Shown: positions 11,901 through 17,900 of the stretch, in pieces
Layout of the letters: each line of letters opens with the position of its first letter
Position numbering within the stretch: the first letter of the stretch is position 1
NCBI RefSeq assembly: GCF_003334815.1
Contig: NZ_QOWO01000019.1
Length of the DNA: 64,000 nt
Direction: 5' to 3' (one strand)
Source: Escherichia coli
Lineage (GTDB): Bacteria; Pseudomonadota; Gammaproteobacteria; Enterobacterales; Enterobacteriaceae
Program-made: the position numbers

Positions 11901-14900
11901 CCGGAAGAAGACGTTCGCCCACTGCTGGCGCTGGAGAATATCTTTGTTGATCAGGATTTTAGCAATAAAGAGCAGGCGATCCAGTTCCTGTGCGGCAACC
12001 TCGGCGTTAACGGGCGCACTGAACATCCGTTTGAGCTGGAAGAAGATGTCTGGCAGCGGGAAGAGATTGTTACCACCGGCGTTGGTTTTGGCGTAGCGAT
12101 CCCGCACACCAAATCTCAGTGGATCCGTCATTCCAGTATCAGCATTGCCCGGCTGGCGAAACCGATTGGCTGGCAGTCAGAAATGGGCGAAGTCGAACTG
12201 GTGATCATGCTGACGCTGGGTGCTAACGAAGGGATGAATCATGTGAAAGTCTTCTCGCAGCTGGCGCGTAAACTGGTGAATAAAAACTTCCGCCAGTCGT
12301 TGTTTGCCGCGCAAGATGCACAAAGTATCCTGACGCTGCTGGAAACAGAATTAACCTTCTGACGTTAGCCCTGAAAACGGGCGCTGTACTCTCCCGGCGT
12401 CAGACCAAACTGACGCCGGAAAACGCGACAAAAATAGTCGCTATCCGGAAAACCGCAACGCTGTGCCACTTCATGAATTGACAGATGATATTTCTGCAAA
12501 ATCATCCTCGCCTTCGCCATTCGCACCCAACGCACATACTCGATAAAACGCATCGTTCCATGCTGAGCAAACAGTTTTGACAGATGATTGGGCGTGATAT
12601 TAAAAAACTGCGCCACGCTCTCGCGGGTGAGCGGCTGGGCATAATTATCCTGAACCCAGTTACAAATGCTGTGATAGAGAAAATCGCCGCGCGGCTGCGA
12701 ATTGCCCGGCGGCATATTCACCACGCTACGGCAAAGATGCAGCAAACTTAACACCAGCGGCTGAATGATATTTTGCTCCAGCGGCGAACGGCTAAGATGG
12801 GTGAGGGCGGTAAGCATCGCTTCACCTTCACCGCGTTGCAGGCTGGGAAGCTGGATCTGGCGAGCAGGATGCAACAACGACGTGGTGCGGCTATCGTAAA
12901 ACGATAACCCAAGCCAGGTCGGAGCGAACACCAGGCTTAACAGCATCACCGGTTTGTTGTTGACCGGTAAATTAGCCGCGCGCGCCGGAATAAACAGCAT
13001 TTCTCCTTCCACCAAACGTTGCTGCTTTGCTTCCAGCAGATTGCCGTATTCGCCGCGCAGCACGATATCCAGACGGGGAAAATCAATACATAAACTGCCC
13101 ACCGGCAACGAGGCAGGCTGGCTGGCAAACCAGACGCGCCCCAGTAGTTGCGGGTTAAGCACCAGGCCGCTGAACAGATCGGCGAAAAATTGTTGATCGG
13201 CGGGCAAGCCTGGTGCTTTCATGAAAGTTCCCGATTAAAGATGCATTAACTGGCGAAATTCTTTCACTTTGCTGCGGCTGACCGGCACTTCAAAATCCAG
13301 ATCTTTCAGTCGCAGAATGTAGGTGTTATTAAACCACGGTTCGATTTCGCGTATTTTGTTCAGATTGACACAAAATGAGCGATGGCAGCGGAAAAAATGC
13401 GACGGCGGCAGTTTGCTGCAAAATTCGGTAATGTTCATCGGCATTACGTAGGATTCACGCCGCGTATAGACAAAGGTCATTTTCTCGTGCGCTTCGGCGT
13501 AATAGATATCGTTAATTGGCGTGACGATTATTCGCTCATCTTTCACCAGATTAATGGTGTCATTCTCACGCGTTACCGTCGCGGCAGGCGTACTGCTGGT
13601 CTGCTGTTGTTGCCAGGCCGCTTCCAGTTTTTGCAGCATCCCGGTAATACGTGACTCCTGATACGGTTTGAGAATGTAGTCAAACGCCTCCAGTTCAAAC
13701 GCTTCTACCGCATGTTCTTTCCACGCGGTGATGAACACAATAAACGGTTTATGGGCGAACTGGCTGATGTTTTGCGCCAGCAACACGCCATCCAGCGACG
13801 GAATATTGATATCCAGAAAAATGGCGTCGACGCGGTTATGCTGCAAAAACTTCAACACGTCCAGACCGTCGTCAAAGGTGCCGACAATCTCCATCTGGCT
13901 GTGCTCTTTAATTAGCCAGCTCAGTTCCTGTTGTGCCAGGAATTCGTCTTCAACAATGATGACTTTCACAATATCACTCCGGCTCAAAGCAATAACGTAG
14001 CCTGTGAGGCGACTGGGGTGCGTTGGTTAGGAATGTAAAACGCAATTTCCGTCCCCGGCTCCAGGCGGCGGATATGCAGCCCCTCGCCATACAATAACTT
14101 CACGCGATGATGGACATTCAGCAGGCCAATTTTATTGCCCGGCATTTCATTCGCTTCGACCCGCTCAATCACCTTTGGATCGATGCCGTGCCCGGTATCT
14201 CGCACCGCAATGCGTACCCGATTTCCGCACTCTGCAACGCTGATGGTGACAACGCCTTTACCTTTGCAAGGCTGAATACCGTGGACAATGGCGTTCTCCA
14301 CCAACGGCTGGATCAGCAGGCTGGGAATGCAGCAATTCACCTCTTCATCAATATCATAGATAACCGTCAGCTTGTCACCAAAGCGGGCCTGCTCAATGGC
14401 AATATAGTCTTTAATTTGATACAGCTCTTTTTTGATATCGATTTGCTCATCGTCTTTTAATTCAATGTTATAGCGCAGATAACGCGACAGATTAAAGATC
14501 AACTGGCGAGCGGTATCCGGATTCAGACGGATTGACGATGAAATAGCGTTCAGAGCGTTAAACAGAAAATGGGGATTAATTTTGCTTTGCAGGGCGCGAA
14601 GCTCTGCCTTATTTGCCATTTCACGTAGCTGCTCGGCGCGTGAAACCTCCAGTTGCGTGGAGATGATTTGCGACAGACCGACCGCCATTTCCTGTAATGA
14701 CGAGGTGATCTGATGCGCGTGGCAGTAGTAAATTTTCAGCGTTCCGGTCACGACCCCTTTCTCCCACAATGGGATCACCAGCATGGAATGAATCTCTGGT
14801 GTGCGGTGGGCTTCATCATTGTTTTTAATGATGATTTTTCCGTAATTCATCGCCTGACGGGTAGTCGGGCTAATGAAGTCATCGCCATTCTGATAGTTAT

Positions 14901-17900
14901 GTTCACCCACGCCAACATAGGCCAGCACATGATCGGTATTAGTAATCGCCACCGCATCGGCGTGAATGTCATCGCGGATAATTTCGCAGACCTTGCGTAA
15001 TGACTCGCTATTGACATGGCGAAACAGCGGTAGCGTTTTGTTGGCGATATCCAGCGCCAGCTTGGCCTGCCGCGCGGCGCTGGCCTCTTTTTCGCCCTCA
15101 ACGCTTTGCACCAGAAGCACAATAAAGCCGATACAGACGCTACCGAGGATCATTGGAATGCCGATTTTAGAGACGATATCGATCCCCAACGCGGTAGTTG
15201 GTGCCCAGACAATTACCAGAATCATGGTCAACGTCTCACACAACATGCCGCCGAGAATACCGACGCGCCAGCGCTGTGCTTTGGGGATTTTCAGGTTGAT
15301 CCAGCCCGATATACAACCCGCCAGAATGCTGGTGATAAAGCAGGGGATCGCCGTCACGCCGCCGATATCAATTAAATACCGGTGAATACCCGCAATCACG
15401 CCGGTAATGATGCCTACCCACGGGCCAAACAGAATCCCGCCGGACATCACCGCGATAATACGTACGTTCACCAGCGAGCCTTCTACGGGAACGCCGGACC
15501 AGGTGCTGAACAGGGCGAACAGCGAGAAAATGGCGGTAACGGCGAGCAATTCTTTTGGGGAGTGCGCCGACTTGTGCAACAGTTCGCGAAACAGGCGGAT
15601 ACGGATGAGAAAGAACAGGCAGATAAGCATTAACGCTGCCCGATCGAAGACCGCCAGCAGCATGTTGAATATTTCGTGCACGGGTGACTCTGAATAAGGA
15701 TTAAACCTCTATGATAGGTAACCTGAAGGCTGATGACCAGCAGGCCGTTTTTGAGGAAAAACCACAATTTTAAAAGGGGATTGATAGATAAATGGTGTAT
15801 TAGCAATGCATCTCTTGATAATGCACTTCTGGTTAGTAAATTTATTGAAATTATTATGTTAATAAAATGAGTGGTAATTTTCTTGTTAGCGCAGATAAAT
15901 TTCCTGTTTTTAAAGCAGAGTTCCTCATTTAACGTCATTAATAAAATGTTCTAAAACGCTGGACAGACAGAAATTAATCAGGCTATTTTCAAAACAGCCA
16001 CCATCGTGGCAGCGTCGCTCGGACGGTCCGGGCGCTAACGTTAATCTGAGGAAATTATGGCTGACACTCGCCCTGAACGTCGCTTTACGCGCATTGATCG
16101 TCTCCCGCCCTACGTTTTTAACATCACCGCTGAACTGAAAATGGCTGCGCGTCGGCGCGGCGAAGATATTATCGATTTCAGCATGGGTAACCCGGACGGT
16201 GCGACTCCGCCGCATATCGTCGAAAAATTATGTACTGTGGCCCAGCGCCCGGACACGCATGGTTACTCCACTTCACGCGGCATTCCGCGGTTACGTCGCG
16301 CCATTTCCCGCTGGTATCAGGATCGCTACGACGTTGAAATCGACCCGGAATCAGAAGCCATCGTCACTATTGGTTCGAAAGAGGGCCTGGCGCATCTGAT
16401 GCTGGCGACGCTGGATCATGGTGACACGGTGCTGGTGCCGAATCCAAGTTACCCGATCCATATTTATGGCGCGGTGATTGCCGGGGCGCAGGTACGCTCA
16501 GTGCCGCTGGTGGAAGGTGTCGATTTCTTCAACGAACTGGAGCGAGCCATTCGTGAAAGTTATCCGAAACCGAAGATGATGATCCTCGGCTTCCCGTCAA
16601 ACCCAACCGCGCAATGCGTGGAACTGGAGTTCTTCGAAAAAGTAGTGGCGCTGGCGAAACGCTACGATGTGCTGGTGGTCCATGACCTGGCCTATGCCGA
16701 TATCGTCTACGATGGCTGGAAAGCGCCGTCAATTATGCAGGTACCGGGTGCACGCGATGTGGCAGTCGAGTTCTTTACGCTGTCGAAAAGCTACAACATG
16801 GCGGGCTGGCGTATCGGCTTTATGGTTGGCAACAAAACGCTGGTCAGCGCCCTGGCTCGTATTAAAAGCTATCACGATTACGGCACCTTTACGCCGTTGC
16901 AGGTGGCGGCGATTGCGGCGCTGGAGGGCGATCAACAGTGCGTGCGCGACATTGCCGAACAGTACAAACGCCGCCGTGATGTATTGGTTAAAGGGCTGCA
17001 TGAAGCGGGCTGGATGGTTGAAATGCCGAAGGCTTCGATGTATGTCTGGGCGAAAATCCCGGAACCATATGCGGCCATGGGATCGCTGGAATTTGCCAAG
17101 AAGCTCCTTAACGAAGCGAAGGTTTGTGTCTCGCCGGGGATTGGCTTTGGCGACTATGGTGATACGCATGTTCGCTTTGCACTGATTGAAAACCGCGACC
17201 GTATTCGTCAGGCCATCAGAGGGATTAAAGCGATGTTCCGTGCCGACGGTTTACTACCCGCCAGCAGCAAACATATTCACGAAAACGCGGAATAAACACC
17301 GTCGTCAGAAATGAAAAACAGGAGCCTGATGGCTCCTGTTTTTCATTGCACAGTTTGCTTTTAGATCATCAGGGCAAAAGTACCGGCCCAAACGATGACC
17401 ATAAAAGAAATGCCCATAAAGAAATATTTCACTTTACATCTCTCCGCGTAATTACTGTTACGCCTGAATGACTTCATTACACCTGATACAGTGAGTTGAC
17501 ACCGGGCAAAGCGACCTTAAAAGCCCTGTATTTTACCGTGGGCATCACCCCAGAATTCTGAGCTAAACTGCTCGAGACGGCGCTAATGTACGCCTAAAAC
17601 TGAAACGAGACAAGAGGCATTTTCTTATTTACTTTTAGTAACTTACAAGTGTCTCATATCGGCGACAGTTTAATTTCTGACGGTAATAATTAGATATTCA
17701 GCGAAGGAAAAAACCTTAAGAAAAAAGCCATAAAAACCATGAGGTTATTATGGCCGATTTGAGGAGGGAAAGAGTAAGAGCAGTTTGTTAAATGTACAAC
17801 GACGATTCTCCCACCGGGCGCGTTTTAAAGCGACGGTGGATCCAGAGGTACTGCTCCGGTGCGCGCATGATCTCTTTCTCGATAATCTTGTTCATATAGG

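Follow-up and report, generated by a model that had tools for sequence, protein, structure and literature searches.

A 64,000-nucleotide stretch of Escherichia coli DNA (the window) carries the alanine transaminase gene alaC, the ypdAB two-component system, the AraC-type regulator gene ypdC and the fry operon, which encodes a phosphotransferase system (PTS) and aminopeptidases. An earlier note on this DNA read the neighbourhood as a local pyruvate-handling circuit. Our analysis suggests that the region is probably three separately regulated units lying side by side, not one circuit: alaC, ypdAB, and ypdC together with fryB-fryC-ypdF-ypdE-fryA, the last of which would be an accessory module whose genes travel together. 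The analysis gives no support to a pyruvate-themed circuit. The genes concerned are as follows.

12365-13222, minus strand: ypdC, AraC-family regulator (open reading frame (ORF) call and RefSeq)
13235-13969, minus strand: ypdB, LytTR-type response regulator (ORF call and RefSeq)
13984-15681, minus strand: ypdA, LytS-type kinase (ORF call and RefSeq)
16057-17295, plus strand: alaC (yfdZ), glutamate-pyruvate (alanine) transaminase (NCBIfam NF006033)
6110-12362, plus strand: fryB-fryC-ypdF-ypdE-fryA (RefSeq annotation and NCBIfam)

Gene identities, phyletic pattern, the presence or absence of motifs, conservation and RNA covariation were read directly from the data. Gene calls by ORF prediction agreed with the RefSeq annotation, and both matched every gene coordinate of the earlier note. 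Its description of the layout also holds: coordinates and GC content place ypdC-ypdB-ypdA divergent from alaC over a 375-bp AT-rich spacer (15682-16056), and the fry operon is convergent with ypdC, with 2 bp between the end of fryA and the stop codon of ypdC. The fry products are a PTS IIB component (fryB), a IIC component (fryC), an M24 aminopeptidase (ypdF), an M42 aminopeptidase (ypdE) and an HPr-EI-IIA protein (fryA). NCBIfam models identified FryA as HPr-EI-IIA, YpdC as AraC-type and YpdB as LytTR-type, and AlaC scored 883.7 bits against NF006033 (cut-off 647). YpdB also matched the NCBIfam LytR and BtsR models with scores under their equivalog cut-offs, as expected for a paralogue. The DNA is that of E. 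coli K-12: positions 12000-17600 show 100% (rounded) identity to MG1655 with one single-base length difference, and the region was found in 5423 of 5426 complete E. coli genomes. By this DNA identity and by annotation, ypdA and ypdB are the genes of the characterised E. coli YpdA and YpdB; they belong to YpdAB (PyrSR)-yhjX, a pyruvate-sensing system akin to BtsSR-btsT. The locus is already known and well annotated; the assignment of YpdC to fry is new, and the alaC leader hairpin described below is the most novel item.

Gene order was compared in 80 loci around YpdB orthologues (≥87% identity) from about 19 Enterobacteriaceae genera, with the E. coli neighbours mapped by tblastn. The alaC gene is divergent from ypdA in 73 of the 74 loci that reach far enough, across a spacer of 372-401 bp. 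The ypdC gene is present in only 12 of the 80 loci (Escherichia, part of Citrobacter, and Kluyvera ascorbata) and absent from the other 68; fryA is nearby in 11 of these 12. Among the testable loci without ypdC, glk lies within 150 bp after ypdB in 57 of 65. Enterobacter and Superficieibacter, for example, have ypdAB beside alaC and glk, without ypdC.

YpdC orthologues with 56-83% identity were found in Salmonella, Enterobacter, Superficieibacter, Pluralibacter, Lelliottia and others. In all five contexts examined that lack an adjacent ypdAB, ypdC stands tail-to-tail with fryA at the end of a full five-gene operon, and the same five fry genes with the same Pfam domains are present in loci L082-L086. 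Salmonella lacks a YpdA-type kinase (PMC5552118), and in Salmonella bongori the order is alaC, ypdC, fryA-M42-M24-IIC-IIB, glk, without ypdAB. In an Enterobacter hormaechei-type contig, Superficieibacter electus, another genome and a Joint Genome Institute (JGI) metagenome contig, ypdC-fry instead lies between rnk and the RNase I gene (rna), with a ypdC-fryA gap of 3 bp or an overlap of 4 bp and no two-component system nearby. The ypdC-fry module thus occupies two different chromosomal sites. The GC content of ypdC (53.6%) falls within the range of the fry genes (51-58%), that of ypdB being 47.5%. Since ypdC accompanies fry in contexts without an adjacent ypdAB, the conserved unit is ypdC plus the fry operon. 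By gene order in loci anchored on YpdB or ypdC, ypdC and fryB-fryC-ypdF-ypdE-fryA are a conserved six-gene module, and the ypdB-ypdC junction is, on the same comparison, a lineage-specific juxtaposition.

The regions upstream of fryB were aligned from eight contexts with differing upstream neighbours (glk or the RNase I gene). They share a conserved core of ~100 bp with the following elements.

5980..5995 (motif 5983-5995), plus strand: CRP-like half-consensus GA-N6-TCACA; GA and TCACA are invariant in the eight fryB upstream regions
6009-6026 and 6029-6046, plus strand: tandem direct repeat, R1 GGATTAATTCTCCAGTAA and R2 GCATTATTTGTCTGGTAA, 20-bp period, kept in all eight contexts
6068-6073, plus strand: predicted fryB -10 element CATAAT, invariant in the eight-way alignment

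The fryB promoter has no recognisable -35 element, and R2 ends 21 bp before the -10 element, at the expected -35 position. A poor -35 element is as expected if the promoter is activator-dependent. An 18-nt position weight matrix (PWM) built from 16 sites scored R2 at 27.6 bits and R1 at 22.8 bits, the next-best site in the 64-kb window reaching 17.3; a separate 22-nt PWM gave 29.0 and 23.8 bits, respectively. A pair of PWM sites at the 20-bp offset occurred solely upstream of fryB and did so in every locus with a fryB upstream region, including three outside the PWM training set. Eleven control loci (225 kb) yielded four single hits of ≥13 bits. No paired site was found upstream of ypdC, and in the alaC-ypdA spacer the best match to the 22-nt PWM scores 8.5 bits, unpaired and in sequence that is not conserved. 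Further PWM hits at 42244, 55351 and 31350 were rejected as operators of this type: each is single, and the one at 42244 is within a coding region.

The YpdC protein has Pfam matches to HTH_18 (E = 2.9e-20) and HTH_AraC at residues 204-281. Its AlphaFold model (predicted local distance difference test score (pLDDT) 83.6) has a beta-rich, cupin-like N-terminal domain at residues 30-126 (pLDDT about 70-90). The full-length fold matches Rns, CsvR and ToxT, and the DNA-binding domain aligns with AraC, MarA and SoxS at template modelling (TM) scores of 0.8-0.9. The N-terminal domain has no Pfam hit and gave weak fold matches to the sensor domains of RhaR and BgaR (E = 5e-3 to 2e-2). YpdC shares with the AraC/RhaS/XylS activators a C-terminal double helix-turn-helix (HTH) and, in the model, a cupin-like N-terminal domain that may bind a ligand or dimerise, and we infer that it is an effector-responsive activator of the fry operon.

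A layout in which the promoter-proximal repeat abuts the -35 position is that of the activator-dependent AraC-family promoters araBAD and rhaBAD. The fryB promoter resembles these in having two direct half-sites of ~17-18 bp roughly two helical turns apart, a proximal repeat that abuts a poor -35 element, and a CRP-like site upstream. As in other AraC-type systems, ypdC is physically linked to its predicted target operon. It differs from them in standing tail-to-tail with the last operon gene, 6 kb from the promoter, instead of divergent from the operon, and in being transcribed in E. coli within an unrelated two-component operon. E. coli also has the frv operon (frvABXR), with a cryptic fructose-like PTS, an M42 peptidase homologue (FrvX, cf. 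YpdE) and a regulator gene at the end of the cluster. Compared by description, FrvR is not known to be of the AraC family, and fry adds an M24 aminopeptidase and a fused HPr-EI-IIA protein.

A conserved ypdC-fry module together with a conserved AraC-style operator at fryB makes a local YpdC-to-fry link likely, and the tandem repeat at 6009-6046 is likely the YpdC operator. In the arrangement that we infer, YpdC would be a ligand-responsive AraC-type activator that binds the two 18-bp repeats, the promoter-proximal one abutting the missing fryB -35 element, while the GA-N6-TCACA motif upstream would be a CRP site, as at araBAD and rhaBAD. The module would have been inserted between ypdB and glk in Escherichia, in some Citrobacter and in one Kluyvera. 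After this insertion ypdC would have become the third gene of the ypdAB transcription unit, separated from ypdB by a 12-nt gap, and its expression would be tied to the ypdA promoter in these lineages only. One part of the earlier note's proposal of local regulation at fry has support, on other grounds: module linkage and the candidate operator favour the limb from YpdC to fry, and the pyruvate theme and the involvement of alaC drop out. YpdC, a transcription factor with a y-gene name for which chromatin immunoprecipitation-exonuclease (ChIP-exo) gave no sites, gains a concrete predicted target, the 6009-6046 element before the cryptic fry PTS/aminopeptidase operon.

Several observations weigh against this assignment. 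Under standard conditions ChIP-exo yielded no peaks for YpdC, an outcome that its authors ascribed to a lack of activating conditions (PMC8464067); the negative result is compatible with a missing inducer, though it is not support. Where ypdC and ypdB occur together, ypdC always follows ypdB by 12-25 bp, even in two loci in which 7-8 kb of other genes separate it from fryA (L009 and L053), and in one further locus (L018) no fry operon occurs within 9 kb of ypdC. These gene arrangements would suit an alternative in which YpdC is an accessory of YpdAB that modulates, for example, yhjX or the kinase, its co-occurrence with fry being hitch-hiking in a variable chromosomal hot-spot; laboratory strains have also been made as ypdABC deletions. 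We consider this alternative unlikely, since ypdC is missing from 68 of the 80 sampled species with ypdAB, its orthologues, at 56-82% identity, accompany fry without a neighbouring two-component system in five of five contexts, including Salmonella, which lacks ypdAB, and the sole conserved AraC-style operator of the region is at fryB. With YpdC assigned to fry, ypdC should no longer count as a pyruvate-sensing component when ypdABC deletions are interpreted. The interval between ypdB or ypdC and glk is itself a variable hot-spot in some Citrobacter and Kluyvera (L009 11600-18460; L018 11600-20729; L053 6520-14740), with cargo that includes formate dehydrogenase-N genes, a YjhG/YagF-type xylonate dehydratase with an aldolase and a LysR regulator, and a major facilitator superfamily (MFS) efflux gene.

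The alaC-ypdA spacer has a GC content of 37% overall and 27% in its middle, the whole window having 49%. A conservation footprint of 25 sequences from about 19 genera revealed two separate back-to-back promoters, some 290 bp from each other, and little conservation in the AT-rich sequence between them. Its main features are listed here.

15739-15711, minus strand: predicted ypdA promoter, -35 TGGTCA (15739-15734), 17-bp spacer, -10 TATCAT (15716-15711); promoter scan, hexamers conserved in the footprint
15960-15989, plus strand: predicted alaC promoter, -35 TGGACA (15960-15965; TCGACA in other genera), 18-bp spacer, -10 TATTTT (15984-15989); promoter scan and footprint
15753-15782, no strand assigned: conserved block GAGGAAAAACC-N7-TAAAAGGGGATT, core AAAAGGGGAT invariant in 25 of 25 sequences

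S. bongori has neither ypdAB nor the ypdA promoter but retains the block at 87% identity and the alaC promoter and leader at 90%, with equal spacing; the sequence between block and alaC promoter is no longer recognisable. Retention of the block despite the loss of ypdAB and the ypdA promoter ties it to alaC, and alaC looks independent of ypdAB. In the variable middle of the spacer, a semi-conserved element, GTAA-N7-TGATATCA-N3-TGTTAA (15836-15862), has constant spacing across genera and might serve as a further promoter or bind a regulator.

Activation of alaC by SgrR is documented (PMC4021124; PMC6775132), and the reviews consulted name sgrS, setA and alaC alone as SgrR-activated genes (PMC4021124). 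The 10-mer TAAAAGGGGA of the 15753-15782 block is also present at -68..-59 of the sgrS promoter (L087), beside the sgrR start codon, and its core AAAGGGGA is kept at sgrS in a Klebsiella-like contig, Serratia and a Salmonella-like contig. The block may thus be an SgrR site. Both the alaC spacer, in a documented member of the regulon, and the sgrS upstream region carry TAAAAGGGGA, but the position differs, the block lying at about -220 from the predicted alaC start. At sgrS, moreover, the element coincides in part with the translation start of sgrR, which might itself account for the conservation at that position. The first unit would be alaC with its own promoter (15960-15989) and a structured leader (15997-16040), activated by SgrR, perhaps through the invariant TAAAAGGGGA block 180 bp upstream. 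The second would be ypdAB with its own conserved promoter (15711-15739) and its output, yhjX, elsewhere in the genome.

The block could also be shared, such that alaC and ypdAB(C) are co-regulated through it, for example by SgrR, and their adjacency is functional without YpdB being the regulator. Its distance upstream is ~55-85 bp from the predicted ypdA start and ~220 bp from the alaC start, sequences at the level of genera all keep the core unchanged, and TAAAAGGGGA is common to the SgrR-controlled sgrS promoter. Such co-regulation is nevertheless improbable: the block persists in S. bongori without ypdA and its promoter, which links it to alaC, the overlap with the sgrR translation start weakens the comparison with sgrS, and ypdA is not among the SgrR-activated genes named in the reviews consulted (PMC4021124).

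The YpdA/YpdB proteins form a LytS/LytTR-type pyruvate-responsive two-component system (PMC4847170; PMC5552118). On pyruvate, YpdAB activates yhjX through a GGCATTTCAT-N11-GGCATTTCAT direct repeat, and yhjX has been described as the sole direct YpdB target (PMC4847170); as the earlier note said, the known target lies elsewhere in the genome. LytTR-type direct repeats, which that note had proposed to seek in 15682-16056, were scanned for as pairs with LytTR geometry and spacers of 10-13 nt, counting mismatches out of 20 and comparing with 1000 dinucleotide shuffles; none exceeded chance level. The best YpdB-type pair in the alaC-ypdA spacer has 7/20 mismatches, equalled by 599 of 1000 shuffles, and no half-site with ≤2 mismatches was found within that spacer. 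The best pair in the fry promoter (the glk-fryB intergenic region) has 8/20 mismatches, equalled by 808 of 1000 shuffles. In 73 orthologous alaC-ypdA spacers, the best pair mostly has 7-8 mismatches.

The scan recovered known and natural sites. The published PyhjX fragment scored 0/20 mismatches. In locus L091 (6001-9958), from a distant relative, an MFS gene of the oxalate/formate family (YhjX-type) comes directly after the genes for a YpdA-type kinase (54% identity) and its LytTR regulator, and the best pair has 4/20 mismatches, equalled by 2 of 1000 shuffles. This MFS gene is preceded by TGCATTTGAT-N10-TGCATTTCAC-N10-TGCAGTTCAT, three GCATTT-type repeats with 20-21-bp spacing, and the linkage of kinase, regulator and MFS gene may be the ancestral arrangement. 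Where a system of this kind has a local target, its site can thus be seen; none is seen at the alaC and fry promoters, and alaC and fry do not count as members of the YpdB regulon on sequence grounds. Here E. coli differs from L091 in that the YpdAB target is unlinked and the local alaC and fry promoters lack a site. No direct repeat came out of a search with seed 6 over the spacer, the fry promoter and L091; since this search overlooked the genuine imperfect repeats of fryB and L091, its negative is uninformative and the motif and PWM scans were relied on.

Two further candidates were rejected. An exact GGCATTTCAT half-site at 14141-14150 (plus strand, antisense to ypdA) has no partner at LytTR spacing and was treated as chance; by an estimate from 4^10, the two strands of 64 kb would contain ~0.12 exact copies. 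A twofold AATGCAYYTCT repeat at 15805-15830 is confined to E. coli and not kept in other genera.

The YpdA-type kinases outside the E. coli cluster also have other neighbours: a 54%-identical kinase gene is followed by an MFS gene, a 43%-identical one by a CstA-family gene, and a 45%-identical one stands alone. None of the closest YpdA-type systems found outside that cluster adjoins alaC, and none of the alaC orthologues examined outside Enterobacteriaceae has ypdA alongside. The alaC-ypdAB adjacency is best read as the inherited gene order of one family, with ypdAB a long-stable neighbour of alaC in the sampled Enterobacteriaceae and no sequence sign of its action on alaC. Two points pull the other way: the adjacency is very stable within the family, which could reflect selection over inheritance, and pbpC is said, in a paper that credits the genomic SELEX work of Miyake et al. 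2019, to be a further YpdB/PyrR target.

It is therefore highly improbable that pyruvate-activated YpdB and/or YpdC directly control alaC and fry as a local pyruvate-handling circuit, the reading that the earlier note offered. Three facts are consistent with such a circuit: in 73 of 74 Enterobacteriaceae loci alaC lies beside ypdA and divergent from it, AlaC consumes pyruvate, and ypdC is operonic with ypdAB in E. coli. The YpdB-type repeats at both promoters are at chance level with working positive controls, however, the alaC-ypdA spacer holds no candidate YpdC operator, and both S. bongori, without ypdAB, and betaproteobacteria retain the alaC promoter and leader; distant YpdA-type systems adjoin MFS or CstA transporter genes, not alaC, and the literature gives yhjX as the sole direct target (PMC4847170). 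The clue that Enzyme I links fry to pyruvate is generic to every PTS, and fry is not beside ypdAB in most genera. In the pyruvate i-modulon btsT and yhjX predominate, and the i-modulon paper makes no mention of alaC. With the circuit set aside, effort is spared on chromatin immunoprecipitation or electrophoretic mobility shift assays at promoters without a YpdB site.

The predicted alaC mRNA start is at ~15996, and two hairpins directly follow it.

15997-16010, plus strand: alaC leader hairpin 1, GCCAC-CATC-GTGGC, structure conserved and sequence variable
16013-16040, plus strand: alaC leader hairpin 2, CGTCGCTCGGACGGTCCGGGCGCTAACG, 8-bp stem with an invariant U.G pair, CGG loop, 3-bp outer helix

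In 67 Enterobacteriaceae sequences, all five pairs of hairpin 1 covary with double changes, and 99.7% of cells are paired. Its metagenome arm variants include GGTCAC/GTGACC, GGCCGC/GCGGCC, GACCAG/CTGGTC and ACTCC/GGAGT, among many. RNAalifold on 27 sequences missed hairpin 1 as loop lengths shift the alignment register, and the hairpin rests on the 67-sequence pairing analysis. Hairpin 2 is invariant in the same 67 sequences save for one compensatory G-C to A-U pair in a Kluyvera clade: one of its eight pairs is doubly changed, the others are invariant, and 98.2% of cells are paired compared to 27-38% with slid partners. The G.U pairs of the leader are possible on the plus (alaC-sense) strand only.

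A metagenome scan with the 23-nt core of hairpin 2 found at least 120 loci with the exact core. Among the matches listed, the alaC ATG lies 4-22 nt downstream in 118 of 120 (14-22 nt in 116), the other two being cut by contig ends. Several of the contigs bearing the core have 63-71% GC and encode an AlaC 71-81% identical to that of E. coli, with relatives labelled Betaproteobacteria or Casimicrobiaceae. A betaproteobacterial alaC orthologue picked by protein, not by motif (L215), has identical stem arms and a loop one nt longer. In this contig (L215 3001-6949; also L216 and L217), alaC heads an alaC-hom-thrC cluster with homoserine dehydrogenase and threonine synthase genes, and a DUF498 gene is divergent upstream of alaC. 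Three metagenome contigs (L133, L136 and L196) have the E. coli-type alaC leader with unrelated DNA further upstream.

The loop insertion is harmless to a hairpin but alters the spacing of a DNA palindrome, and the wobble pairs are specific to the plus strand, which favours an RNA-level element in the leader. The constancy of its stem suggests that the sequence of hairpin 2 is recognised by some factor. Other roles were rejected. A leader peptide does not fit, since the in-frame GTG at 16006 is not conserved, stops intervene and all three codon positions are invariant (by inspection). Hairpin 1 is not a minus-strand terminator, as the G.U pairs fit the plus strand only and the high-GC versions have no T-run. 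A DNA operator for alanyl-tRNA synthetase (AlaRS) is not indicated, the alaS upstream region having no similarity to the alaC leader. Hairpin 2 is single-copy per E. coli genome and unannotated. An Rfam cmscan of 15600-16200 (E ≤ 10) gave chance snoRNA-type hits only, below gathering scores, and a literature search for the hairpin 2 sequence found no paper containing it.

The alaC leader resembles the thrS operator, read by threonyl-tRNA synthetase (ThrRS), and ribosomal-protein operators in being a short 5' mRNA hairpin. Its invariant stem, wobble included, suggests sequence-specific recognition rather than recognition of structure alone. It differs from the thrS-type operators in having no Rfam family. 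The stem pairs G-C, G.U, G-C and C-G equal what we take to be positions 2-5:68-71 of the tRNA-Ala acceptor, and an AlaRS-type protein is a speculative candidate for the reader. Tentatively, hairpin 2 might be an undescribed, very old cis-regulatory RNA of alanine-transaminase genes, through which a conserved trans-acting factor would set alaC translation or mRNA stability by amino-acid status. Among the transaminase genes for alanine synthesis in E. coli, alaC is one of the major ones, and its leader hairpin is shared by two proteobacterial classes; if regulatory, the hairpin would offer a new handle on the control of alanine synthesis.

A few features of the region are minor. The RefSeq record labels fryA 'ptsP'. 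The fryA and ypdC stop codons are 2 bp apart (12362-12365; 3 bp or a 4-bp overlap in other genera), and the scan found no intrinsic terminator at this junction; read-through in either direction would give RNA antisense to the opposite gene. The window is one base longer than the MG1655-derived record NZ_CP032667.1, 5601 query bases aligning to 5600 record bases. The single-base indel lies in 17296-17600, the alaC-ypdK-lpxP intergenic stretch, where the gene offset changes from 2999 to 3000 between alaC and lpxP. In some E. coli strains, IS1A or ISApl1 insertions are present within the region equivalent to 12000-17600.

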